Below are positions 8,034 through 22,281 of a stretch of 64,000 bases of DNA, piece after piece (within the stretch, counting starts at the first letter, position 1; the number at the start of each line of letters is the position of its first letter). The DNA comes from Giardia intestinalis (Eukaryota), in NCBI GenBank assembly GCA_000002435.2, contig CM018790.1. One strand, 5' to 3'. Below the pieces are notes generated by a model. That model made no database searches and was not told the origin of the DNA. It worked only from the letters and a program-made list of their open reading frames with translations. Position numbers and translations under genes: made by a program.

Positions 8034-10298
8034 TTACGTTACATCATGTTCCTTCTGCTCAAGAAATCCATCAAGTAGAATGAGCATAGGTTTGAACACG
8101 TACTCAGACTCTTTCTTTAGAGACGCTAGCTCATTATTCTGAAGAGGCTTGGCTGAGTACAGTGCATCTAGAAAGACAGCCATCAAAACCAAAAGAGGCA
8201 CAAGCGCCCAGATACACACCATGGTTAGAGTGTTAGTTGCTAGCCGCTGCAAGCCCAGCACTCCTATCTCATATAAAAGGACACAGATTGCCATCTCCAA
8301 AGCGCTGCCATCAAACCGTCCACCCTCAAAGATCCTGTGCCGTTCTAGATGGTGTACGTGACAGCGTGCATACAGAAAATCGGCACCAAAGAGCTGTGCG
8401 GCAGAGGCCATCATAAAGCAGAGCAGAATGGCCAGCGTGATCATAAGAATGCGAAGAAGAGTAAGAAACGCGTTTTTGCGCTTAATCCGCCGCACTGCCC
8501 GGATATTATATTCCAGCCGCCTTAGAATGCTAACGATCACTGCGTGGCAATCCCTGAGAATACGTTCGTTGTCAACAAAAATGGATTGCTCAAGGGACCA
8601 ACAGAGCTCATCGGTAGATGCTAAGAGCTCACCGATTCGGCTGGTAGAGGCACAACTTTGGTGTAAGCCGTTTCCAAGACCAACCTCTGAGCTTGCTGGG
8701 CCCTGAGAAATGATAGAGTGAGCATCATAAGTATTTGGGTTTACGACCCGGAGCATGGTGCCGCATTGGCTAATGAGCTTTCCGGCCATTGCGTTAACGA
8801 TTGCTTGTGAAGCAGCAAGGGTCTTAACTACATTTGACTGCTGCAGCGAATCAGCTAGTGTATAGTTCTGCTGCTGAGAGGGTGCCACTGACGAAGAAAG
8901 GAACTTATCCTGCTTGTCTGCAGATAAGGTCAAAGTAGAGATGCCCAAATGTGTTGGCTCCTGCGAGAGCTGTGGCAGTGCACCTGTTTCTACTTCGCTA
9001 GCTCCATACTGTTGCGGTCTGTTGCTTAGAGTAGCACTCAATTTAGTGACTTCAAGAACTATGTTTGACGTGTCGACAAGCGCTCTTGTTTGCTCATTAA
9101 GACATCTTATAGTATCGCATATATCTTGTTTTAGCCTCGTCGTTTTAGCCTGCTGGTTTGCCATTTTTGCATTGCCATAATGGGGGATACAGACTAGATT
9201 CATTTTGAAACGTCTGTATGGGGAGAGCAATATGAGTGACGAGGCGTACTCCTGAATGGCGTCAATACACGATTGTTTATCTGTAAGACGATCACACTTA
9301 GTAATTAGAATAGTTGTTTTTCCAAAAAGCTCATTTGATGAACTGATGTAGTGTAGTAGCCTTCCATTTTCCACAGAAAAGCCTTCGGTTTTTGTATCTA
9401 TACCACAGCTTGTTGTAAAAAGGATCTTATCAACTTGATGAAAGAGCGCCTTGATTGTGTTTTCAAACACTCGAGTTTCTGCCTTAGAAAAAAGCGAGCT
9501 CGGCTTGGCTTGTTTGCCTCGCTTGGACAGGTTGCTCAGAGAGCTGAGAATTCCTTTTGAAGTCGACGACTCTATCACGTAGCGGTAGAAAAATGGTACT
9601 TCGATGAAAATAAAGGGACACGTAGGCCCCATTAACTGGTCAGATGCTCCATGAAGTATGTTGTTACTCTGTGGTAAATGTGAGACAGACTTTTCTAACT
9701 TATCTATCGAATTATAGAGGGTAGCAGAATTAGACGAGACATCTTTATATCTAGAAGCCGAAGTAGATGAAGAATCACGTCCCCTTGGCAGCTGCTTAGT
9801 GCCCTCAGCAGTCGACTTAGTAGAGTAGTACATGGATTTCCCGGTGGGGGAGAGGTTCGCGTTGTGAAACCCACTTTGTAATTGGCTCTGGTCTGTTGAA
9901 AGCACCGATCCAGGAGTCTGCTTACTATATGAATTAAAAGCGCTGCAACGAATATGCGAGCCTGGGAATCCGTTTTCACGAAAGCAAGCATGGATGGATG
10001 GCAGTGTGTCTGCAAGACTGTCTGTAAAATAGGCAACATCGTTGACGCAAGGCACGTATATATTGATGCACATTCCCTCTGAGCGAAGCCTTGATCCGGT
10101 GATGTGACTTATAAGCGACGATTTTCCGCTGTAGTCCTCGCCAAGAACCAAAATCACTGGTCGTGGATTGGGAGCCTTAAAGGGGGTTGTAATGCGAAGT
10201 CTTTGACCAGCTGAGATTATGTGATGTACATATAGGTCTGAGATGGCTGCTCGTGTTTGCAAAGCCACATCTAAGCCTTGATCTGTATTAGAGATCAT
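8034..10298 (-). CDS. P-loop NTPase/GTPase-like membrane protein (dynamin/EHD-superfamily-like), hypothetical
   Basis: Walker A LVLGEDYSGKSSLISHITG and a TKCD (N/TKxD-like) G4 motif. Three hydrophobic helices near the C-terminus (LILMITLAILLCFMMASAA, ICVLLYEIGVLGL, VCIWALVPLLVLMAVFL). ATG start confirmed. Confidence 0.75.
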   Translation of the reverse strand: MISNTDQGLDVALQTRAAISDLYVHHIISAGQRLRITTPFKAPNPRPVILVLGEDYSGKSSLISHITGSRLRSEGMCINIYVPCVNDVAYFTDSLADTLPSIHACFRENGFPGSHIRCSAFNSYSKQTPGSVLSTDQSQLQSGFHNANLSPTGKSMYYSTKSTAEGTKQLPRGRDSSSTSASRYKDVSSNSATLYNSIDKLEKSVSHLPQSNNILHGASDQLMGPTCPFIFIEVPFFYRYVIESSTSKGILSSLSNLSKRGKQAKPSSLFSKAETRVFENTIKALFHQVDKILFTTSCGIDTKTEGFSVENGRLLHYISSSNELFGKTTILITKCDRLTDKQSCIDAIQEYASSLILLSPYRRFKMNLVCIPHYGNAKMANQQAKTTRLKQDICDTIRCLNEQTRALVDTSNIVLEVTKLSATLSNRPQQYGASEVETGALPQLSQEPTHLGISTLTLSADKQDKFLSSSVAPSQQQNYTLADSLQQSNVVKTLAASQAIVNAMAGKLISQCGTMLRVVNPNTYDAHSIISQGPASSEVGLGNGLHQSCASTSRIGELLASTDELCWSLEQSIFVDNERILRDCHAVIVSILRRLEYNIRAVRRIKRKNAFLTLLRILMITLAILLCFMMASAAQLFGADFLYARCHVHHLERHRIFEGGRFDGSALEMAICVLLYEIGVLGLQRLATNTLTMVCIWALVPLLVLMAVFLDALYSAKPLQNNELASLKKESEYVFKPMLILLDGFLEQKEHDVT

Positions 10299-10371
10299 CT
10301 AGCTTTTATTTCTCATTCACTGGTTAATTTCGAGCTAAGTTCCACCCGTGCAGCGGACCAGCCCTTCCCGC

Positions 10372-11996
10372 GCTTTGGGCCCGGGCGGGCACGCTCTGGC
10401 CTGCAGCGCCGCGACCTTCCAGGGCGTCTCCGGGGCCCGGCGAGGCACACCCGCCGCCGCGGGCTGTGCCGGCCGGCCACAGGCGGCTGCTGTTCGCTTC
10501 CTCGCGACCGCTTGCCACCCAGGGTCCTGCCTGTCGCTGAGGGTCCTCGGATCAGGCCCTGTCTCCGGCCAGCCGATCGAGCCGCTACCGGATCACCAGG
10601 AAGAGCAGACCCACCCATTCTGCGGCCGACACACTACCACTCTCGGAAGCGCTACGCACATAGAGAGTCTACAGCGCACTCAGCCTGACAGCTGTGATGA
10701 GCCAATACTCGACAACGCAGCATAGACAAGGGCACCGTCACGCATAGACGCCTCCACATAGTTTGCTTTGGTTCATTACGGCAAGCTTGCCAGCTGCTGT
10801 CCGACTAAATTACTCAAAGAGAACGGCTGCGGTGGACAACATTCTTGCTCATTGAATTTGAGATCCGATGATTCGGATGCCATCTAGTTCTGGTGGAGAA
10901 AGAGATCTCCATGAGTCCCTGCTGCAGGAATCACCAGTTCAGCTCTTGCACTACTGTTTCAGGGACACTCCGTCCCCTTTGCTTACTCCCCTTGGGCGCT
11001 AGAACTTGGGCACTGCCTATGTCTTGTTACATGGGTCGATGGCGCCCCCAACTTCCGTCGCAATGTCTCGTAGGGACCACCGACGTTAGTAGAGGCGTAG
11101 CTCAGATGGCGAGAGGCTGGGGCCTAACGATTAACATTGCTAAGCGTAAGAGCATCCAGAAGGTATGAAAAGTTTTCTTCCTGGGAACCCAGTCTCGAAA
11201 GAGCGGCTATCTGCAGCCCTCAGGGCGATCGCGAGTACATCAAAGCATCTGAAGCTGGTAATTGATACGCCATATGACTTCTACGAATCCTTCAACGGAC
11301 TGGTCAGGGTCTCTAGCTGAGATACTTGTTTCGGACCTGAAGAAGCCCATTGCGTTTTTGGCTATACAGGACAGCGGCAGCCTGGGGGTCCACCTACTGG
11401 GCGTCTACTACAGCAGCTGGCGGTGCCTGACATCATCGAGTAGATGGGTGCCGGTTGTAGAGAGAGACGGCCTAACGACGAACCGGTCCTGATCGCTTCT
11501 GATGCTTTGGATGACGCCTCGACAGACCGAAGCATCACCCCAAGTGTGCTGTGCAGATGGACCAGCCCACACGTCACTGAGCCAGACACACTGCACAGGA
11601 TGGGCGCCGATGCGGTCTCGTGCTGGGTGACGGAGCACCTCTGCGACCCATGAACCGAGGACTGGACCTCTCCCCTGATACCAGCGCATGGGAGTACTCC
11701 ATCGACATCCACGAATGCGTACCACAACCTCAAGATAGAGGCGCATGGGGAGCGCGCCCTCCCGGTCATACTCGGAACCGATGATCGCTTCATGGGGAGA
11801 CGAAGAGGCACCCGAGGAACGGGGTAGACACCGGGGTCGTGGCGTGCGATCTTTGTCGTAGAGCACCAAGACCTTGAAGTACATGGCCAGAGTCAACTGC
11901 TCTGAGGCCAGATCGCCGTGGATGATGCAGACCCGAGACAACGGATGCTCACTAGACATCAGACGAGAATTGACCCCGACGGGCCAGAGAGAAGGG
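10372..11996. repeat. Left arm of large inverted repeat (partner 18119-19771)
   Basis: Positions 10372-11531 are the exact reverse complement of 18612-19771, with left+right coordinate always 30143. I checked this by direct comparison of 10741-10800 with 19343-19402, and by three identical mirrored ORF pairs (10893-11168/18975-19250, 11262-11492/18651-18881, 10348-10725/19418-19768). From 11532 to about 11996 the arms still align but with many mismatches and indels. Confidence 0.95.
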
Positions 11997-12414
11997 AGGA
12001 ATCCTAGAGGCACCGCAAGAAACAGCAGGGACTCTTAAAAGAGACGGGGCATAGGAGTTCTTCCGCCGGGATTCGAGAACACCCGACTCTCGGATTTCTG
12101 ATCTCAGCTAATGTATGAGTGAGAGACTTGCCTAGAGTGGTGGTGGCTCGCATGAGAGACCACTCAGATAGCAAATGAGAGTAAATTAGGGGACCTTATT
12201 GAAAAAGAAACGGTGACCCGAGCTTCACCCATCGTGAAACAAGACCAAGGAGAAGCGCCATGGGTAGAGCAGAGAGTCTGCGAGAAGGCCTGAACCCCGA
12301 AAGGACCGATGTACGCATTCGGTCTGAGCATGCACCCATGAAACGGTAGAGAAATGTACCGGGCCCTGGATGTATCACTGGAGAGGACCCTCTTGTTATG
12401 TTATCAATGACCAA
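11560..12414 (-). pseudogene. Decayed protein-kinase-domain remnant (NEK-like), left copy
   Basis: Minus-strand ORF 11408-12013 reads ...SRVCIIHGDLASEQLTL (HRDLKxxN-like loop) ...LVLYDKD (DFG position) ...SSPHEAIIGSEYD (APE-like) ...YLEVVV... VLRHPARDRIGAHPV (subdomain XI-like). Upstream ORF 12196-12414 has HPGPGTFLYRF (Gly-loop-like). It is broken by stops and frameshifts. The right arm carries a more degraded copy (AVRHPARDRIGAHPVQCVWLS in ORF 18269-18781). Confidence 0.5.
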
Positions 12415-12523
12415 CAGTCGTCTCTGAACTGGTCAGAGCTTGAGCGAGGATCACACGCAAGATCTCTGGACAATCCTCAGATAGCCCCAGCAGCATAGTG
12501 TAATAAGCTACATACAACAATGC

Positions 12524-12538
12524 GTTTACTACCTAAGT
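12524..12538 (-). promoter_or_regulatory. VSP-type extended polyadenylation signal ACTTAGGTAGTAAAC
   Basis: The minus strand reads TAG ATGT ACTTAGGTAGTAAAC immediately after the VSP stop. This matches the published vsp consensus ACTYAGRTAGTRAAY, which contains the Giardia AGTRAAY poly(A) signal. Confidence 0.85.
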
Positions 12539-12542
12539 ACAT

Positions 12543-15245
12543 CTACGCCTTCCCGCGGCAGAGGAACCACCAACACAAGAAGCCCACAAGACCACCTACA
12601 ACAACGATCACAGCAACAGAGATGCCCGCGATCGCGCCAGTGCTGAGCCCGCTCTTGTTGACGCTTCCGCCGTTGTCAGTGCCATCCGTCTTGACGTAGC
12701 AGATGACAGAACCACTATTACCAGTTGGAGGATCGCAGCTTGCGCAGTTAGCGACACCCTGGATGCTACCGCTTGTCTCTGTACACAGCTTGCATGCTTT
12801 ACTGGCGTCCAAGTAACGGCCAGGTGGACAGGCGCTGCACTTATCGGGTTGATTGGCCACGGTGCATGTGGCACAAGTGGAATCGCATAATGGACACATG
12901 TTCGAGACAGCTGTCAAGCCATTCGCACATGTTTGGCATTTTCCATCCCCAGTGGGCGTTGTGCAGATGCTCTTCCCGGGGAGCCTGTCAGTCTTGTAGC
13001 ATCCGCCCTCCTGGATGAAGTATCCGGCGGCGCAGACCGTGCAAGCACCGTTAGCGGCAGTGGTGCAGAACAGAGTCCTGGCCGCATTGCTCGTGCAGAC
13101 GCCATTGAGCGGCACGTTGCTCCCCTTGCACTTCGAGCAGTACTTGGTACCTCCAATTGTTAGGCCGCACGTCTCGCACTCCGGGCCTTCCACGCATTGC
13201 TCCACGCACGTGCCGCCCTCATTAAGCTTGCTTTCGTCGGCGTACCTCAGCATCTTCCCGGCGGGACAGGCCGTGCACTTGGAAGCGCCGGCCCCGCTGC
13301 ACTCCGCACAGGAGGGGTCGCAGGGCGCGCACGTTTGTCCGGATAGATACGTTCCGACAGGGCAGGCATCTAAGCATGCCTTCTTCGTCGGGGTCAGATG
13401 CTTGCCTGGTTCACACGCCTCGCAAGTCTGCTTGTCCGAGGAGCACGTCTGGCAGTTCTCGATCGGGCAGTCGGCCGGCGCTGGGTTGCACGCCCTGTTA
13501 TCCCCGCTGGCCACGAATCCCGGCTTGCACGCCTCGCACGTCGCCTTGTCCGAGGAGCACGTCTGGCAGTTCTCGATCGGGCAGTCGGCCGGCGCTGGGT
13601 TGCACGCCCTGTTATCCCCGCTGGCCACGAATCCCGGCTTGCACGCCTCGCACGTCGCCTTGTCCGAGGAGCACGTCTGGCAGTTCTCGATCGGGCAGTC
13701 GGCCGGCGCTGGGTTGCACGCCCTGTTATCCCCGCTGGCCACGAATCCCGGCTTGCACGCCTCGCACGTCGCCTTGTCCGAGGAGCACGTCTGGCAGTTC
13801 TCGATCGGGCAGTCGGCCGGCGCTGGGTTGCACGCCCTGTTATCCCCGCTGGCCACGAATCCCGGCTTGCACGCCTCGCACGTCGCCTTGTCCGAGGAGC
13901 ACGTCTGGCAGTTCTCGATCGGGCAGTCGGCCGGCGCTGGGTTGCACGCCCTGTTATCCCCGCTGGCCACGAATCCCGGCTTGCACGCCTCGCACGTCGC
14001 CTTGTCCGAGGAGCACGTCTGGCAGTTCTCGATCGGGCAGTCGGCCGGCGCTGGGTTGCACGCCCTGTTATCCCCGCTGGCCACGAATCCCGGCTTGCAC
14101 GCCTCGCACGTCGCCTTGTCCGAGGAGCACGTCTGGCAGTTCTCGATCGGGCAGTCGGCCGGCGCTGGGTTGCACGCCCTGTTATCCCCGCTGGCCACGA
14201 ATCCCGGCTTGCACGCCTCGCACGTCGCCTTGTCCGAGGAGCACGTCTGGCAGTTCTCGATCGGGCAGTCGGCCGGCGCTGGGTTGCACGCCCTGTTATC
14301 CCCGCTGGCCACGAATCCCGGCTTGCACGCCTCGCACGTCGCCTTGTCCGAGGAGCACGTCTGGCAGTTCTCGATCGGGCAGTCGGCCGGCGCTGGGTTG
14401 CACGCCCTGTTATCCCCGCTGGCCACGAATCCCGGCTTGCACGCCTCGCACGTCGCCTTGTCCGAGGAGCACGTCTGGCAGTTCTCGATCGGGCAGTCGG
14501 CCGGCGCTGGGTTGCACGCCCTGTTATCCCCGCTGGCCACGAATCCCGGCTTGCACGCCTCGCACGTCGCCTTGTCCGAGGAGCACGTCTGGCAGTTCTC
14601 GATCGGGCAGTCGGCCGGCGCTGGGTTGCACGCCCTGTTATCCCCGCTGGCCACGAATCCCGGCTTGCACGCCTCGCACGTCGCCTTGTCCGAGGAGCAC
14701 GTCTGGCAGTTCTCGATCGGGCAGTCGGCCGGCGCTGGGTTGCACGCCCTGTTATCCCCGCTGGCCACGAATCCCGGCTTGCACGCCTCGCACGTCGCCT
14801 TGTCCGAGGAGCACGTCTGGCAGTTCTCGATCGGGCAGTCGGCCGGCGCTGGGTTGCACGCCCTGTTATCCCCGCTGGCCACGAATCCCGGCTTGCACGC
14901 CTCGCACGTCGCCTTGTCCGAGGAGCACGTCTGGCAGTTCTCGATCGGGCAGTCGGCCGGCGCTGGGTTGCACGCCCTGTTATCCCCGCTGGCCACGAAT
15001 CCCGGCTTGCACGCCTCGCACGTCGCCTTGTCCGAGGAGCACGTCTGGCAGTTCTCGATCGGGCAGTCGGCCGGCGCTGGGTTGCACGCCCTGTTATCCC
15101 CGCTGGCCACGAATCCCGGCTTGCACGCCTCGCACGTCGCCTTGTCCGAGGAGCACGTCTGGCAGTTCTCGATCGGGCAGTCGGTCGATACTGATGTACG
15201 GTGAGCCTGTGTCACTGTAAAAACTAGGAGAAATCCTACCAACAT
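12543..15245 (-). CDS. Variant-specific surface protein (VSP) with 38-aa tandem repeats
   Basis: N-terminal signal peptide MLVGFLLVFTVTQA, numerous CXXC motifs, a GGCY motif (IQEGGCYKTD), and a C-terminal TM helix followed by the invariant tail CRGKA. The start context cTAATGTT is Inr-like. Confidence 0.97.
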   Translation of the reverse strand: MLVGFLLVFTVTQAHRTSVSTDCPIENCQTCSSDKATCEACKPGFVASGDNRACNPAPADCPIENCQTCSSDKATCEACKPGFVASGDNRACNPAPADCPIENCQTCSSDKATCEACKPGFVASGDNRACNPAPADCPIENCQTCSSDKATCEACKPGFVASGDNRACNPAPADCPIENCQTCSSDKATCEACKPGFVASGDNRACNPAPADCPIENCQTCSSDKATCEACKPGFVASGDNRACNPAPADCPIENCQTCSSDKATCEACKPGFVASGDNRACNPAPADCPIENCQTCSSDKATCEACKPGFVASGDNRACNPAPADCPIENCQTCSSDKATCEACKPGFVASGDNRACNPAPADCPIENCQTCSSDKATCEACKPGFVASGDNRACNPAPADCPIENCQTCSSDKATCEACKPGFVASGDNRACNPAPADCPIENCQTCSSDKATCEACKPGFVASGDNRACNPAPADCPIENCQTCSSDKATCEACKPGFVASGDNRACNPAPADCPIENCQTCSSDKATCEACKPGFVASGDNRACNPAPADCPIENCQTCSSDKATCEACKPGFVASGDNRACNPAPADCPIENCQTCSSDKQTCEACEPGKHLTPTKKACLDACPVGTYLSGQTCAPCDPSCAECSGAGASKCTACPAGKMLRYADESKLNEGGTCVEQCVEGPECETCGLTIGGTKYCSKCKGSNVPLNGVCTSNAARTLFCTTAANGACTVCAAGYFIQEGGCYKTDRLPGKSICTTPTGDGKCQTCANGLTAVSNMCPLCDSTCATCTVANQPDKCSACPPGRYLDASKACKLCTETSGSIQGVANCASCDPPTGNSGSVICYVKTDGTDNGGSVNKSGLSTGAIAGISVAVIVVVGGLVGFLCWWFLCRGKA
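13432..15184. repeat. Perfect tandem repeat, 114-bp unit x about 15.4 copies, inside the VSP CDS
   Basis: The unit cttgtccgaggagcacgtctggcagttctcgatcgggcagtcggccggcgctgggttgcacgccctgttatccccgctggccacgaatcccggcttgcacgcctcgcacgtcgc recurs every 114 nt. It encodes ADCPIENCQTCSSDKATCEACKPGFVASGDNRACNPAP. All three plus-strand frames give identical translations in every unit, so the copies are identical or nearly so at nucleotide level. Confidence 0.97.
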
Positions 15246-15247
15246 TA
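15241..15247 (-). promoter_or_regulatory. Initiator-like element around the VSP start codon (TAATGTT)
   Basis: The minus strand reads c-TAATGTT-gg. This fits the PyAATGTT initiator described for 'VSP with INR' genes. Position only; no functional evidence. Confidence 0.45.
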
Positions 15248-15878
15248 GCCGGGTTAGTATGCCACTGCTCTTCTGTCAGGCCGGTGTATTGGCCGCGAGC
15301 AGTGAGAGACAGCCGCTCTTGCTCTCTCGATCAGTTGGACTGAAGAAGGATAAGATAGGAGCACGCCCACCGGAGGCCGGCTGATAGTGCAGTTCCCCCT
15401 GACTTCGATAGGAACAGGACCAGTGATGACTAGACTCAGACCGCACCTCTCTTGTGGAATGATTGTTCGGGGCGCACTCCTGTACATTGCTGTCACTGTA
15501 TCACTGGGCCCGCCTGCAAGTGCGCTCAGAGATCCCACGGGTAAGCTGCGCCCACTTCTCGACCGTCCGGAGACGATGGCTAGTTGTGGATAACATACTA
15601 AGAGCTCCTCTCCATCGATGCATCCAGAGCTCAGTGTGGTCCCAGTCGGCGTGCCCTGTCGAGGGTGCTCCATGTCGGCCTCCAGGATCCGGCCTGCTCA
15701 GGGCCATACAAGCCGTTAGTATGCCTCTCCTTGGCCTGCCATCGACAGCTCGCACTGGCCGCCCTGCTCGGGTAGTAGCCAAGGTCACTCCAAAGGGTGG
15801 CTCCGGATTGCAGTTAAGATTAGCGATGGCTGTTGGCTCCACTCCCCGTTCCAACTGCCGCGGAGGGCGCCCTGGGAG

Positions 15879-18016
15879 ATGCTAGTAACAGTGCAGTTAG
15901 CGGCTTTGCAGAGCCGATGGGCGCTGGTGGCATCCCCGTGCTCAGCGGGGGCCTTCAGTGTTATCTACTCTCCCAAGGGATGCCCCTACCTCGCCGTGAG
16001 AGAGATCCGGCTCGACGGTCTGGATCAGCACGGTGTGGATGCTAAAGCGTGGGCTGGTCGCCCTTCTTAACATCTTTCACCTGGGAGTCCTCAAGCACTA
16101 TCAAGTGATTGAAGACGAGGGCCTCATCTACGTCGTCACGGACCGGCACGACAAGACCCTTGAGCGCCTCCTCACCGAGCACAAACGAAGGAAGATCCCC
16201 GTCCCTATCGCTGTGATCCTCTCTGTCATGAAGCAGGTCGCTGCCGCCCTCGCCTACCTCCACGGCCTCAGCGGAGTGGGTGCCGACGGTCGCCCCTACA
16301 AGGGCCTCGTCCACCGCGACCTCAAGCTTGCGAACGTCCTCGTCAGCGCAGATGGTGAACACTTCATCATCGCCGACTTCGGCCTCTGTAAGGACGCCCT
16401 GAGATGCGGGAGCACCATTGCAGGCACGGCAGTATACATGGCCCCCGAGATTCTCCTCCGTAATGAGACCAGCCATGCTTCCGACGTGTGGAGCCTCGGG
16501 GTCATCATTTATGAATTAGTAACTCTGAGGAGACCGGACTTCTTGGGGGGCAAGGAGCCAGCAGAGGTCTTCGTCGACGGGTGGAGGCCGGACCTGAGCG
16601 GTGTCACTGATGGCTTCATAAAGAGTGTTCTGGAGAGGATATTCGTGCTGGAACCAGAGGAAAGACTGACGGCCAGGGAGCTGCACGAGACGCTCACTGC
16701 GGCTGACATCCCAGTTAGTGAGCTGAGGGGCAGTGCGTGATGCTGAGGTACAAGTGCGGATCCTTGGAGGCTGCGCTGAATGGCGCTAACGCCAGGATCG
16801 CGCTGCTGGAAGAGGAGGTTAAGACTAAGTCTACTAAGATTGACGCACTCGAAGAGCAAGGTAAGGAGCACCTAGCCATGATTAAGGCACTGGAGAGTAG
16901 GCTTGCACAGTTCGGTGACAGGATGAACACGACTGACCCTCAGTCCAGCCTCCTTTTGCTGCCCAGGCTGATGCGTGCCGCGCATACGAATAGCATGGAA
17001 ACCGTCTGGATGCTGCTTGAAGAAGGACTCGGCGTTGGCTAGCGTGACGAGCAGGGGCACGTCAGTCCCGTCGAGTTGCTTGTTGGGGAGGAGAGGGGCC
17101 TCCAGGACAGGAACGGCTGGACCCCCTGATGATCACCACAGAGGAGGGCTATGCAAGAGCTGCCTCCCTTCTGGTCCCATATGAGAAGGACCGGATCGGC
17201 AGCGAAGGCAAGACGGCCTTGGTGATTGCGGCAGAGGCAGGACATGGAACTGTGGTGGAGGCCATCGACCCAACCGATGAGAATGGCGTCACGGCGCTCA
17301 TGCGAGCTGTTAATAGAAACTACGTGGGGCCTGTGAAGGCAGTCATACTTAGCCAGAGAAGGAGGAAAACATACAAAGAGGTCATAGCAAGCGGATGGTA
17401 CATGCGCACAGGAACAGCTCTGATGATGGCTGCGGCACATGGATACGCAGAAATAGTAGAACTGCTAGTGGAACACGAAAAGGGGAGAAAGTAGGCGGTT
17501 GGGCCGCTCTCATATTCGCGGCACGGTGCGACCGTTCCAATGACCCCCTGGTGGACTATATTGGGCGCGTTGAGCTTTTGATGGAGTATGAGAGCAATAT
17601 CTCAGGGTGGACGGAGCTCATGTATGCAGTAGCACGAGGGCAGAAGGGAGTGTAGAGCTGCTCAAGCAGGAGACTGGGATACAGAATAACGATCATCAGA
17701 CTGTCCTCACGTGGACGGTGTGCAATGATCACCCAGAGTGTGTCAGGCCCCTGCTGAAGGACGAAGGCTGCATGCAAACGACCAAGGGGGGACCGCCCTT
17801 ATGAACGCAGCATATAGCAACACCGTGGAATGTGCAAGACTTCCTAAAGAAAACGAGAAGGAGCTGAAGACAATTTCTAGCTGCCATGGTCACTCGCCCG
17901 GTACCACTGCCCTCAATATCGCTAAGAAGAAGGATCGCAAAGAGATAGTAGACATCCTCCCAAACGAGATCTACTCTGCTTCATCAAGGTCGGCTTGCCA
18001 GCTCCTGTCCGAGTAA
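15879..18016 (+). pseudogene. NEK-family kinase + coiled-coil + ankyrin-repeat gene, disrupted by multiple frameshifts
   Basis: N-lobe (SAGAFSVIYS...YLAVREIRL) is in frame 0 (15879-16070). The catalytic core (LVHRDLKLANVLV, ADFGLCK, GTAVYMAPE, SDVWSLGVIIYELV) is in frame 1 (16033-16740). The coiled coil (16737-17042) is in frame 0. Ankyrin units (GKTALVIAAEAGH, GVTALMRAV, GTALMMAAAHGYAEIVELLV, GGTALMNAAYS, GTTALNIAKKKDRKEIVDIL) are spread over frames 2, 1, 0 and 2. Confidence 0.8.
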
Positions 18017-18118
18017 ATCCGTCCAGGATCCGGAGTCCGGATGCCGCCCACTCTGGAGAAGAGCCTTGTGCATCCCGCCTAGGAGCCATTGGGTGCTCCA
18101 CTATATGCTTCGGGGCGT

Positions 18119-19771
18119 CCCTTCTCTCTGGCCCGTCGGGGTCAGCCATCGCCTGATATCTAGTGAGCACCCGTTGTCCCGGGCCTTGCGTCGGTCACGG
18201 CGATCCTGTCTCAAGAGCAATTGACTCTGGCCATGTACTCTGGAGTAGCTTTGTGGTGCTGATGCTCCATGACGAAGATCGCGCCCCACGACCCCGGGTG
18301 TCGACTCCCGTTCCTCGGGGTGCCTCTTCATCTTCTCGTGGAGGGCACCATCTGTTCCATTATCAAGGATGCGCTCCCCGTGCGCCTCTGTCTTGGAGTC
18401 ATAGTACGCATTCGTGGATGCCAGCGGAGCACTCCCATGCGGTGGTGTCGGGGGAGAAGTATGGCCCTCCTATTCATGGATCGAAGGGCGCTCTTGCAGG
18501 CGGTCCGTCACCCAGCACGAGACCGCATCGGCGCCCATCCTGTGCAGTGCGTCTGGCTCAGTGACGTGTGGGCTGGTCCATCTGCACCGCAAAGCACGCT
18601 TGGGGGAATGATTCGGTCTGTCGAGGCGTCATCCAAAGCATCAGAAGCGATCAGGACCGGTTCGTCGTTAGGCCGTCTCTCTCTACAACCGGCACCCATC
18701 TACTCGATGATGTCAGGCACCGCCAGCTGCTGTAGTAGACGCCCAGTAGGTGGACCCCCAGGCTGCCGCTGTCCTGTATAGCCAAAAACGCAATGGGCTT
18801 CTTCAGGTCCGAAACAAGTATCTCAGCTAGAGACCCTGACCAGTCCGTTGAAGGATTCGTAGAAGTCATATGGCGTATCAATTACCAGCTTCAGATGCTT
18901 TGATGTACTCGCGATCGCCCTGAGGGCTGCAGATAGCCGCTCTTTCGAGACTGGGTTCCCAGGAAGAAAACTTTTCATACCTTCTGGATGCTCTTACGCT
19001 TAGCAATGTTAATCGTTAGGCCCCAGCCTCTCGCCATCTGAGCTACGCCTCTACTAACGTCGGTGGTCCCTACGAGACATTGCGACGGAAGTTGGGGGCG
19101 CCATCGACCCATGTAACAAGACATAGGCAGTGCCCAAGTTCTAGCGCCCAAGGGGAGTAAGCAAAGGGGACGGAGTGTCCCTGAAACAGTAGTGCAAGAG
19201 CTGAACTGGTGATTCCTGCAGCAGGGACTCATGGAGATCTCTTTCTCCACCAGAACTAGATGGCATCCGAATCATCGGATCTCAAATTCAATGAGCAAGA
19301 ATGTTGTCCACCGCAGCCGTTCTCTTTGAGTAATTTAGTCGGACAGCAGCTGGCAAGCTTGCCGTAATGAACCAAAGCAAACTATGTGGAGGCGTCTATG
19401 CGTGACGGTGCCCTTGTCTATGCTGCGTTGTCGAGTATTGGCTCATCACAGCTGTCAGGCTGAGTGCGCTGTAGACTCTCTATGTGCGTAGCGCTTCCGA
19501 GAGTGGTAGTGTGTCGGCCGCAGAATGGGTGGGTCTGCTCTTCCTGGTGATCCGGTAGCGGCTCGATCGGCTGGCCGGAGACAGGGCCTGATCCGAGGAC
19601 CCTCAGCGACAGGCAGGACCCTGGGTGGCAAGCGGTCGCGAGGAAGCGAACAGCAGCCGCCTGTGGCCGGCCGGCACAGCCCGCGGCGGCGGGTGTGCCT
19701 CGCCGGGCCCCGGAGACGCCCTGGAAGGTCGCGGCGCTGCAGGCCAGAGCGTGCCCGCCCGGGCCCAAAGC
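18119..19771. repeat. Right arm of large inverted repeat (partner 10372-11996)
   Basis: 18612-19771 is the exact reverse complement of 10372-11531. 18119-18611 aligns to 11532-11996 with substitutions and a net 28 bp of indels. Weak similarity may continue to about 18016 / about 12090. The arm starts directly after the stop of the NEK pseudogene. Confidence 0.95.
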
Positions 19772-19863
19772 ACAGATGATGGTTCATTTCATCTATTTAC
19801 TAGAAGGCAACTAGCCGAATAGTCTGATAAGTAGCCTCTTCTTATGCATGTTAACTGAATAAG

Positions 19864-22281
19864 TCATATAACTGGGATATAACAGCATCCAATAATAACC
19901 CAGACAGCCGCAATGGTTTCTGCATATCCAAAGACAGAAACGTGCAGTCCTATACGCAGTTTATCCCCATGTGCCTCAACTATACTACGACTTTTATCGT
20001 TTGAAAGAAGCGTCTCTACAATAGGTGGAGCATAGAATCTTAGGCTCCCCATGACCTGCAACGGATAAACTATCAGTGTTTCACGAGAAGAAACATAATT
20101 TTTGAGCGCTACCTTCAAAGTCTCATTGCCTAACTGGCCGATAGTTCCACCCATGAGGCGTGTCTGTTCCCAGGATGCTACTGTGGGCGCCAATATCATA
20201 GAAAGCTGTTCAGATCTGGGTGTTGTCAGTCCAAGTGTTTGCCTCCGTGCTTCAATAAGCCTCCATATATCTGCTGTTAAATAACTGGACAGTGTAGCGG
20301 CCAAGGAGGGGCCAAACGGTTTTAGTATATTCTGGTTTTGAAGCAAACGTGGAAGACGGGTAGAAGTCACTAGATAATCATCGTCATCCATGTTATAGTG
20401 ATAGACATAGCTATTATAGACGCGTTCTATCATGGACTGATTGAAAGCTTTCCAAAATAAGGGCCTGGATATATCTAGAGATATGCCATGTATAAGTTGT
20501 TTTTCAGGTATGTATTGTAGTCTATTTGTACTTTGAATATTAACAAAAAGCATGGTTTCATTGAAAATGCAGTCTATTGTCTCATACGGAAAATGAATAA
20601 CAGTTCCAGCAGAATCAGAGTGTTTATCTATCTTGTATTGACCTTCTGTTGGCAACGAGTGCAGCTCTATCATACCTCCATGATCCGATAACAAGCAGTC
20701 CCAGAATTGAATCACCTGTGCACAGAGTGTGATAACGAACGCAGAGCGGACACTCCTATTTCCAGACACATCCGATTTTAGCCCTGGAAGAGCGCATGTG
20801 CCCAGAGCAACGAATGCCGGTATCTGATATCCTCTCAGCATCGAGCACAAGAGAACTGCCTTGTCAAACGGTGTACCAGCACCGACAGATAGCGTGGTGA
20901 TAACTCGAGACCAGACTAGCTCGTTGTTTCCTGATAGTCCAGCGGTGGCTGGAGTTGATTGGCGTCCAGGTGCTGGCATAAGTTGGATAAAGCGCATGCA
21001 ATAGCTAGCCGTTGGAAGGTACGAGCTTGTAAAGGGAGTGATAAGAGTGGAAATAGGGACCACCATTCCATCATCCCGAAGAGCATGGAGCTGAACAAAA
21101 CGCTTGTCTAGTCCAACCGAACTGGGCTGCGAGCCAAGATAGTCTCTCATAAATACGCTTGCGGTCCTATCATATTCTGCAAGTGCTCTGGAGACTGATC
21201 TTTTTGAGGTTGTTAATATGTCTCTAAGGGAGCGGAAGGAGGCTTCTTCAGAGACATCTGCACTGGTCAGAAGGGGCGTGAAAGTGATTGAAACGTTAAG
21301 AGTACCTAGCCGTATTTTTTCGGTTGGAGTGTTGGGTCCTGGTGCTTGAGAATAAGGGTACATGGGAACACTAACTGCCCCAGCCAGCAGAGAATTGGCC
21401 TTGGTCAGCTCAGTGAAGAACTCCACAAAGCCAACTCGTCCATGTGCATGAAGATACTGCATTCCTGAATAGCTGTGGAACACCGCAAGAAAGGTAAGGT
21501 CAGTTACTTTGAGATCTGAAATTGCTCTGAAAGAAGTCAGCGGAGTGGAGGATATACAGAATCGAATCTTTGAAAACGCTAACGGTGCAAGCCCTATAGT
21601 AGCATCACTTCTTTCACACTTGATTGGCGGACAGACATGCCGCAAATTTCCAAGAGCTATTGTGAGGGTAATCACGCCTTCCTCACTGACGCCAGATTGC
21701 CCACCAAGATTGTTACTACACGGAGGAGCAAGCTCACCCGAGGTGATCTGAACCTCTAGATGTTGTTCTACAAGAGTTCTAGACTCTCTAGCAGCGTGAA
21801 GCGCTGTAAGCATTGAGACGGAATCTCTAACCACTTCACTCATAGCACGTGTTGCCTGACGCTCTGTACTATTTAAATCATCGTGTGTATTCATAGACAA
21901 TACATTAGGCTGTGTGCCCCCCTGGACAGACTCCAAATGGCGGCGAGCTTGCTCTCTTCTTTCCATACGTTCCTCTGCAGACATTGATATGCAATCTGTT
22001 GGCTCTGCAGTGGCCCCAGAGCACTTCGACCTGTGAATAGCATATGCCTCCTTCACTGTTTGCTTATCAAAGGCCTGGTCAAAGTATCTTTCTGCCAGTG
22101 AGTGTACTAAGTTGGACTTTTCCAGGTATACTAAGAGACGCTTTTCTACGTCCCGTGGGTTCATATCTCTATCTATCTTTAGCTCTGGGTCCTTGGACTC
22201 ACTGAGTTCCTGGAAAATGCTCTGCAGCTGCTCTTTTGTAAGCTCTCTTAGAACGAACGCCTTAATGCTCTGGGAGTCCAT
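19864..22281 (-). CDS. Hypothetical protein, possibly CC2D2A-like (C2 + transglutaminase-like fold)
   Basis: 805-aa ORF with ATG start. The C-terminal half contains AVLLCSMLRGYQIPAFVALGT, MLFVNIQS, LDISRPLFWKAFN and a terminal ...AAVWVIIGCCY. These resemble my recollection of human CC2D2A ([40 protein letters not shown], ...SVWIYVASL). The assignment is unverified. Confidence 0.85.
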   Translation of the reverse strand: MDSQSIKAFVLRELTKEQLQSIFQELSESKDPELKIDRDMNPRDVEKRLLVYLEKSNLVHSLAERYFDQAFDKQTVKEAYAIHRSKCSGATAEPTDCISMSAEERMERREQARRHLESVQGGTQPNVLSMNTHDDLNSTERQATRAMSEVVRDSVSMLTALHAARESRTLVEQHLEVQITSGELAPPCSNNLGGQSGVSEEGVITLTIALGNLRHVCPPIKCERSDATIGLAPLAFSKIRFCISSTPLTSFRAISDLKVTDLTFLAVFHSYSGMQYLHAHGRVGFVEFFTELTKANSLLAGAVSVPMYPYSQAPGPNTPTEKIRLGTLNVSITFTPLLTSADVSEEASFRSLRDILTTSKRSVSRALAEYDRTASVFMRDYLGSQPSSVGLDKRFVQLHALRDDGMVVPISTLITPFTSSYLPTASYCMRFIQLMPAPGRQSTPATAGLSGNNELVWSRVITTLSVGAGTPFDKAVLLCSMLRGYQIPAFVALGTCALPGLKSDVSGNRSVRSAFVITLCAQVIQFWDCLLSDHGGMIELHSLPTEGQYKIDKHSDSAGTVIHFPYETIDCIFNETMLFVNIQSTNRLQYIPEKQLIHGISLDISRPLFWKAFNQSMIERVYNSYVYHYNMDDDDYLVTSTRLPRLLQNQNILKPFGPSLAATLSSYLTADIWRLIEARRQTLGLTTPRSEQLSMILAPTVASWEQTRLMGGTIGQLGNETLKVALKNYVSSRETLIVYPLQVMGSLRFYAPPIVETLLSNDKSRSIVEAHGDKLRIGLHVSVFGYAETIAAVWVIIGCCYIPVI

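Follow-up and report, generated by a model that had tools for sequence, protein, structure and literature searches.

Palindromes of the human Y chromosome and the inverted repeats of plastids undergo arm-to-arm gene conversion. In this report we describe an inverted repeat of Giardia intestinalis, located in a stretch of 64,000 nucleotides of contig CM018790.1 (assembly GCA_000002435.2; "the window" hereafter), whose arms bracket one surface-antigen (VSP) gene and one NEK-type kinase gene with ankyrin repeats, and whose outer parts are identical while the inner parts are not. As in the Y-chromosome palindromes and plastid repeats, the arms are closer to each other within a genome than between lineages and have sharp limits. 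Unlike those systems, this repeat is far smaller, its limit lies inside diverged transposon remnants rather than at a unique spacer, and an additional layer of exchange with copies at other loci seems to be present.

Within Giardia, the closest described systems are the 14 identical inverted VSP pairs of the WB isolate, in which the flanking sequences are described as "nearly identical up to a point of abrupt divergence" (Adam et al. 2010, PMC2996952). Xu et al. (2020, PMC7000408) noted reverse-transcriptase remnants as well as NEK genes between some VSP pairs, along with gene-poor, variable regions around VSP genes and a loss of synteny at the gene families concerned. The Giardia muris genome paper reported the same kind of VSP pairs and suggested gene conversion. 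The repeat described here comes from the same genome as the pairs of Adam et al., since the open reading frames (ORFs) flanking it are exact matches to proteins of G. intestinalis WB C6. It shares with them perfect inverted repeats a few kb apart, an abrupt point of divergence, the proximity of VSP genes, NEK/ankyrin genes and reverse-transcriptase remnants, and the breaking of short-read and Sanger contigs. It differs in that no VSP ORF is present in the arms, a single VSP (12543-15245) being located in the spacer, and in that the arms remain approximately 78% homologous past the abrupt point because both carry the same repeat family. Two identical VSP ORFs, one per arm, are not present, and the arms gave no Pfam match. 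Hence, the locus acts like the known VSP inverted pairs though it is not a VSP pair, and abrupt boundaries of this kind have already been described.

The identity step and concerted evolution in the outer block

The repeat finder and both local and global alignments place the arms at 10372-11997 and 18118-19771, in opposite orientation on one chromosome. The repeat finder reported 10372-11554/18589-19771 as 100% complementary, followed by shorter and less similar pieces; the alignments divide the arms as follows (no strand is assigned to any of these segments).

10372-11531: left arm homogenised block, 1160 bp, 1160/1160 identical to the reverse complement of 18612-19771
11532-11550: left arm divergent patch, 19 bp, counterpart 18588-18611, with 4 substitutions and a 5-bp indel (15/24 columns identical, 62.5%)
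11551-11634: left arm near-identical stretch, 84 bp, counterpart 18504-18587 (83/84 identical, 98.8%)
11635-11997: left arm diverged inner part, with indels and 75% identity to 18118-18503
18118-18611: right arm inner part (patch, near-identical stretch and diverged part), from the alignments and a segment identity matrix
18612-19771: right arm homogenised block, 1160 bp, mirror of 10372-11531

A first-pass annotation made by reading the sequence had described arms that are perfect to 11531/18612, with first mismatches at 11532, 11536 and 11537, a coordinate sum drifting from 30143 to 30115, about four-fifths identity further in, and a sharp step instead of uniform decay. All of this is borne out by computed alignment. 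No mismatch occurs within 10372-11531, the first being at 11532 (G/T), 11536 (C/T), 11537 (A/C) and 11545, after which the right arm carries a 5-bp insertion (18588-18592). The coordinate sum moves from 30143 to 30115, leaving the right arm 28 bp longer, and 392 of 500 columns are identical over the inner 466 bp (78.4%, with 40 gap columns). In a maximum-likelihood change-point analysis, two rates with a break after 11531 improve the log-likelihood by 138.6 relative to a single rate, and decay is therefore stepwise rather than gradual. The step takes the form of a staircase with three parts, from 62.5% to 83/84 to 75%.

To place the arms in a wider context, they were compared with 22 fetched Giardia loci, labelled L001-L022 and together comprising about 270 kb. 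L003, L006, L014, L016 and L017 are from isolate DH (sub-assemblage AII), L015 and L018-L020 from ENA assemblies, L001 and L021 from P15 (assemblage E), and L022 is a more distant orthologue of the CEP76-like gene on the right flank. In DH, the architecture is as in WB, with the same outer boundary. L003 begins in the left flank, covers the left arm, the VSP and the NEK gene, and ends after 375 bp of the inner right arm, and L006 reaches from the right flank into 437 bp of the outer right arm; these stretches extend from unique sequence and are presumably read-anchored. Over the outermost stretch the left and right DH arms (L003 versus L006) are identical at 437/437 positions, and WB differs from both DH arms at the same 14 positions of these 437 bp, the two-arm comparison between WB and DH covering the outer 437 of 1,160 bp. 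Independent decay would leave comparable arm-to-arm differences in each strain. With 14 shared sites and none between arms, the outer 437 bp are therefore under concerted evolution. The arms are more alike within a genome (1160/1160 in WB, 437/437 in DH) than between lineages, and the lineage substitutions are present on both arms. Homogenisation of the outer block by gene conversion, one of two possibilities raised in the first pass, is the best explanation of identical DH arms that share the same 14 differences from WB. The 14 substitutions separating sub-assemblages AI and AII, each on both arms, offer a clean and datable case of concerted evolution in an organism whose recombination biology is debated.

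The inner arms present a different picture. In DH they match each other at 372/375 positions (99.2%) but match either WB inner arm at only approximately 79%; where the step falls thus depends on the lineage, and sequence must have been replaced ectopically. Judged from the alignments, three inner haplotypes in two close relatives would need at least two replacements from outside the locus. Across the whole spacer (approximately 11400-18510), WB-DH identity ranges from 73 to 98% and averages about 86%. DNA around this VSP thus turns over faster than its neighbours, the spacer having diverged by about 14% as compared to 0-2% in the adjacent gene.

Retroelement remnants in the arms

The arms are non-coding. 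They have no long ORF, and Pfam gave no match in six frames of 10300-12200 nor in the arm ORFs. An RNA gene found no support in two Rfam scans, as a gathering-threshold scan of the window found nothing and an E-value scan of 10250-12600 returned a single chance-level snoRNA match (E 0.18). What the arms do contain is a dispersed family of retroelement sequence. A 201-amino-acid (aa) ORF across the left cliff (the step at 11531), used as a query, returned 14 short "hypothetical" ORFs from several Giardia assemblies that are alike even in shifted frames, and this is therefore a repeat family at the DNA level. Family copies occur at other loci in DH (L014, L016, L017) and in the ENA assemblies (L015, L018-L020), three of which lie within about 5 kb of a VSP gene, and two more are present in P15.

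In L017 and L021 the family runs on into a reverse-transcriptase region. The P15 ORF annotated as "Reverse transcriptase/endonuclease, putative" matches Pfam RVT_1 (E 3.8e-25) and LINE-1 ORF2 reverse transcriptases in PDB. When its sense translation was used in tblastn, aa 341-501 aligned with 11106-11486 on the plus strand (E 7e-13), and in the right arm aa 341-501 aligned with 19037-18657 and aa 527-652 with 18628-18311 (E 2e-15). Likewise, nhmmer aligned L017 169-1412 colinearly with 12193-10963 (E 1.7e-169) and L017 also with 18026-19028 (E 3.8e-149), the window copies being colinear with L017 and L021 from the reverse transcriptase to the 3' end. By these alignments, each arm contains a degenerate, 5'-truncated non-LTR retrotransposon with its 3' end toward the spacer. 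The following elements can be distinguished.

10963-12193, plus strand: 5'-truncated dead non-LTR retrotransposon remnant, left, spanning the cliff and extending 196 bp past the inner repeat end (nhmmer, tblastn)
18026-19180, minus strand: 5'-truncated dead non-LTR retrotransposon remnant, right, starting just past the ankyrin ORF stop codon; outer limit 19180 is the mirror of 10963
12044-12193, no strand assigned: 3'-terminal segment of the element, left arm only; other copies have it inverted at their far ends, in the manner of a terminal inverted repeat
10753-10997, plus strand: second, inverted copy of 3'-terminal type sequence, in the perfect block, mirror 19146-19390; matches L015 7524-7758 (nhmmer E 7e-11)
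10372-10752, no strand assigned: GC-rich outermost segment, mirror 19391-19771, defined by composition (65-69% G+C versus approximately 40-50% in the flanking genes), without ORF support or a Pfam/Rfam match

No recognisable reverse-transcriptase domain was found in the window copy by Pfam in six frames of 10300-12200. What is left is the part from the C-terminal end of the reverse transcriptase onward, with many stop codons. The cliff lies just upstream of a degenerate Cys motif ("CVLCGARMDTNH" in P15, "SVLCGADG" in the right arm), which we take to be the CCHC motif of endonuclease-bearing non-LTR elements. A "dead" non-LTR retrotransposon family of Giardia, GilD or Genie 2, was reportedly described by Arkhipova and Morrison in 2001 and by Burke and colleagues in 2002. 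Its degenerate copies are said to occupy internal chromosomal sites and to carry an ORF of the reverse-transcriptase-plus-endonuclease type with stop codons, and its inverted terminal repeats are reportedly about 130-170 bp ("up to 172 bp" for Genie 2). The window element is presumably GilD/Genie 2-like, an assignment made from the P15 annotation and structural resemblance.

In the present family, the far ends of L016, L018 and L015 consist of inverted near-end sequence in cross-copy alignments and nhmmer searches, whereas the repeat finder was mostly negative within single copies and the match there is weak. These ends may correspond to the inverted repeats of Genie 2/GilD. For instance, the far end of L018 (1131-1281) matches 12044-12183 on the plus strand (E 2.3e-13), and its body matches the minus strand. 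Within the window, 17964-18071 matches 10756-10850 (nhmmer E 2.8e-7), and the 3' end of the ankyrin gene (17974-18018) is a 45-bp match to 10766-10810 by blastn. Two side observations concern these termini. Short family copies of about 1.0-1.2 kb (L016 7432-8640, L018 240-1281, L015 7524-8645 and L017 176-1412) are bounded by the inverted terminal sequence of approximately 130-150 bp; internally deleted elements, inversion products and a still-moving unit are candidates for their nature. One terminus subtype is continuous with the 3' end of an ankyrin/NEK gene (…CTGTCCGAGTAAATCC).

The family copies at other loci run unbroken across 11531 in alignments and nhmmer searches, and therefore the step is not an element boundary. 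To examine relationships among inner arms, twelve sequences were aligned and a segment identity matrix was computed. Over 18300-18500, identity is 0.79 between the WB left and right arms, 0.90 between the WB right arm and L017 (a different locus, in DH), and 0.85 between the WB left arm and DH, L015 and L018; by this matrix the WB inner arms are not each other's closest relatives. The variant at the left-arm cliff, including the 5-bp deletion, is common to L017 and L015, and that at the right-arm cliff ("GGGAATGATTCGG") is common to family member P0027 at the protein level. These differences are therefore family polymorphisms rather than new point mutations. The 84-bp stretch 11551-11634 looks like an older or patchily repaired conversion tract, since other family copies differ there at about 9 sites (counted on the alignment). 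As a separate observation, a family indel of approximately 35-42 bp is located at about 18626/18627 (11516/11517 in the left arm), 15 bp outside the cliff. P15, L016 and L014 carry the insert, which both WB arms, DH, L015, L017 and L018 lack, and it is because of this indel that BLAST homology of L014 to the window appears to end within a few bp of the cliff.

The first-pass annotation had raised the possibility that the arms are a duplicated kinase gene and had taken the step to coincide with the end of a kinase-domain remnant. Neither reading held. Pfam searches for a NEK kinase pseudogene at E <= 0.01 and E <= 10, on the arm ORFs, family members and six frames of 10300-12200, were all negative, and tblastn with the kinase domain of the adjacent NEK gene gave no arm match better than E 0.12. 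The peptide quoted for the remnant ("HPARDRIGAHPVQCVWLS") is indeed present, on the minus strand at 11576-11629, about 11 bp from the interval of approximately 11587-11640 given for it. It is an antisense reading of the retrotransposon ORF remnant; the sense strand of the element is opposite to the frame that had been chosen, and the element crosses the cliff. The "kinase remnant" should accordingly be re-annotated as the antisense strand of a retroelement pseudogene.

Explanations for the boundary

Arm-to-arm gene conversion that ends where the retroelement paralogues have become too diverged is, in our judgement, probably the correct explanation of the step. Each arm consists of a GC-rich flank and an inward-pointing dead retrotransposon remnant, the two arms bracketing a VSP-NEK/ankyrin cassette. 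Under this model, the outer 1,160 bp would be kept identical by repeated non-reciprocal copying from arm to arm, i.e., intrachromosomal gene conversion. The inner ~470 bp would represent two lineages of one dispersed retroelement family, with at least some inner sequence imported by ectopic conversion from copies at other loci. The heterology itself would stem from exchange of the inner retroelement parts with paralogues at other places in the genome. Conversion tracts would stop at the first heterology cluster (11532-11550) because the inner parts, with ~75-79% identity and several indels, are too dissimilar for tracts to pass, and one older or patchy tract may reach 11634. The conversion mechanism, the blocking role of heterology and the order of events are what we infer from these comparisons.

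Sequences from P15 provide a view of the history of the locus. In P15 the element module is present twice, in L001 upstream of the 17385 orthologue and in L021 downstream of the CEP76 orthologue. Identity between the two copies is 90.2% and includes uninterrupted matches of 251 and 106 bp, the same kind of patchiness as in the WB arms. A counterpart of the GC-rich segment, 71% identical, is located next to the CEP76-like gene only (L021 12400-12769 versus 19882-19546) and was not found on the 17385 side within the sequence examined there. The copy beside GL50803_17385 consequently looks as if it was derived in assemblage A. In L022, no arm homology and no GC-rich segment were found in the 892 bp downstream to the contig end. 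Other features of P15 may be recorded here. The P15 synteny break falls exactly at this locus (L001 1-6819, L021 12418-16146). Beyond the element copy by the 17385 orthologue are a gene of 765 aa and an ankyrin gene of 910 aa that are absent from the window, and by the CEP76 orthologue is an intact RVT_1 ORF of 373 aa (L021) with a near-identical twin on another P15 contig.

Several points weigh against the conversion model. The orientation of the element relative to both flanking genes is opposite in P15 and WB, without a simple explanation (inversion between the inverted termini of the element was considered as a cause in P15), and the locus thus has a more complex past than this model describes. 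Conversion is inferred from two strains, with 437 of 1,160 bp comparable on the DH right arm; the DH assembly is a short-read assembly from which the middle of the right arm (window-equivalent 18510-19337) is missing. The comparison of possible donors for the inner arms covered the window and the fetched loci. It should also be noted that events could be ordered in two ways, either full-length homogenisation followed by overwriting of the inner parts, or pre-existing heterology that limited the tracts.

A recent one-off inverted duplication, exactly 1,160 bp in length, with one end in an already diverged retroelement copy and no ongoing conversion, would fit the P15 data, in which the GC-rich segment on the CEP76 side only means that a duplication must have made the 17385-side copy in assemblage A, and would also fit inner arms that are independent lineages of the family. 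It is unlikely, however, given that DH has the same outer boundary and identical arms and yet differs from WB at 14/437 sites on both arms. A duplication preceding the split would leave arm-to-arm differences, and duplications following it would have had to recur with the same end points in two lineages. Duplication could therefore account for the origin of the repeat but not for its maintained identity. Very improbable is the second possibility raised in the first pass, in which an older inverted duplication of a kinase gene received two oppositely oriented insertions of a 1.16-kb mobile element with its own boundaries. Both ends of the block are sharp, as those of such an element would be, but the dispersed family continues across 11531 uninterrupted, 10372 is not the end of any sampled copy, and no copy sharing both the 10372 and 11531 ends was found in the window or among the 22 fetched loci. 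Furthermore, among the fetched loci 10372-10963 is confined to the orthologous DH locus and the one counterpart in P15, there is no kinase signal, and a search for homologues of the outer-block ORFs found none: a 666-aa concatenate of these ORFs gave no match among 5.8 billion proteins, a weak negative in that at most 8,000 candidates were scored and the frames are GC-rich and of low complexity. Part of this proposal, a younger component upon an older one, survives, as the GC-rich copy beside GL50803_17385 looks derived and the inner parts are older and independently diverged; the superimposed element and the kinase duplication do not.

Perfect identity could in principle also arise from assembly or polishing, as consensus polishing is able to homogenise repeats, or from strong purifying selection on a functional non-coding outer element, a reading to which the position of the outer ends would lend itself, with one end halting shortly before the promoter side of GL50803_17385 and the other shortly before the 3' end of the CEP76-like gene. 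We give this pair of explanations very little credence. The WB reference was assembled from ~200x PacBio reads with Quiver polishing (PMC7000408). P0023, an ORF of an independent database record that is probably an earlier WB annotation and the only match in exact look-ups of the arm ORFs, is identical to 18269-18781, across the right-arm cliff. Short-read contigs stop approximately 27-29 bp inside both outer ends (about 19742-19744 on the right side; one representative contig in at least 20 samples). Taken together, these three observations make an assembly artefact unlikely as the source of perfect identity, and the DH arm portions reaching out from unique flanks are identical to each other as well. 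Selection does not hold the outer block, because the outer arm diverges faster between WB and DH (93-98% identity) than the adjacent gene (98-100%), and the block has no Rfam or Pfam match. A further proposal builds on the conversion model. The arms may serve as a recombination frame, in which loci trade the VSP-NEK cassette, whole or in part, through ectopic recombination between dispersed retroelement remnants, and arm-to-arm conversion repairs the frame. Possible traces of such swapping are the three inner haplotypes, which are about 80% alike in strains whose flanking genes are 98-100% identical, and the WB-DH spacer identity of about 86%. We advance this idea tentatively and regard it as doubtful. 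If true, diversification of the VSP repertoire would involve retroelement remnants as part of its machinery, and the break points within dead retrotransposon remnants provide a concrete locus for asking whether such remnants mediate the exchange of VSP cassettes.

Genes of the spacer and flanks

The spacer of 6-7 kb between the arms contains one VSP gene and one broken NEK-ankyrin gene, and the repeat is flanked by one gene on either side.

8034-10298, minus strand: GL50803_0017385, left flank gene, exact match to KAE8302294.1 / XP_001706166.1
12543-15245, minus strand: VSP gene of 900 aa ending in CRGKA, in the spacer (Pfam VSP E 3e-164)
15879-18016, plus strand: NEK-type kinase and ankyrin-repeat gene, in several frames in WB, with a Pkinase match (E 2.5e-31) at 16033-16740
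19864-22281, minus strand: CEP76-like "centrosomal protein", right flank gene, exact match to KAE8302296.1 (Pfam CEP76_C and CEPT76_peptidase)

The start codon of GL50803_0017385 is 73 bp outside the left arm, and the stop codon of the CEP76-like gene is 92 bp outside the right arm. The junctions at the outer repeat ends (gaps 10299-10371 and 19772-19863) show no microhomology. The repeat seems to reach as far as possible without touching the control regions of the neighbouring genes.

The NEK-ankyrin gene is spread over at least 5 frames in WB. Its DH counterpart (L003 477-2555) consists of a kinase ORF of 411 aa and two ankyrin ORFs, and WB-DH identity over this gene is only 77-98%. Either the gene has become a pseudogene specifically in WB, or its frame breaks are indel errors left in the WB sequence.

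Tandem Repeats Finder identified 15.5 copies of a 114-bp (38 aa) repeat in the VSP gene (13414-15184, 99% identity), and this repeat also accounts for the long antisense ORFs at 13015-15220. The gene fits vsp100 (GL50803_33279), for which Adam et al. (2010, PMC2996952) gave 11 copies and 748 aa, by simple arithmetic: the addition of four 38-aa copies gives 900 aa. Four repeat copies of vsp100 were probably collapsed in the old assembly. The 3' flank of the VSP (12203-12660) is itself a dispersed sequence, 77% identical, that forms an inverted pair (33-375 and 2367-2709) about 2 kb apart in the DH locus L016.

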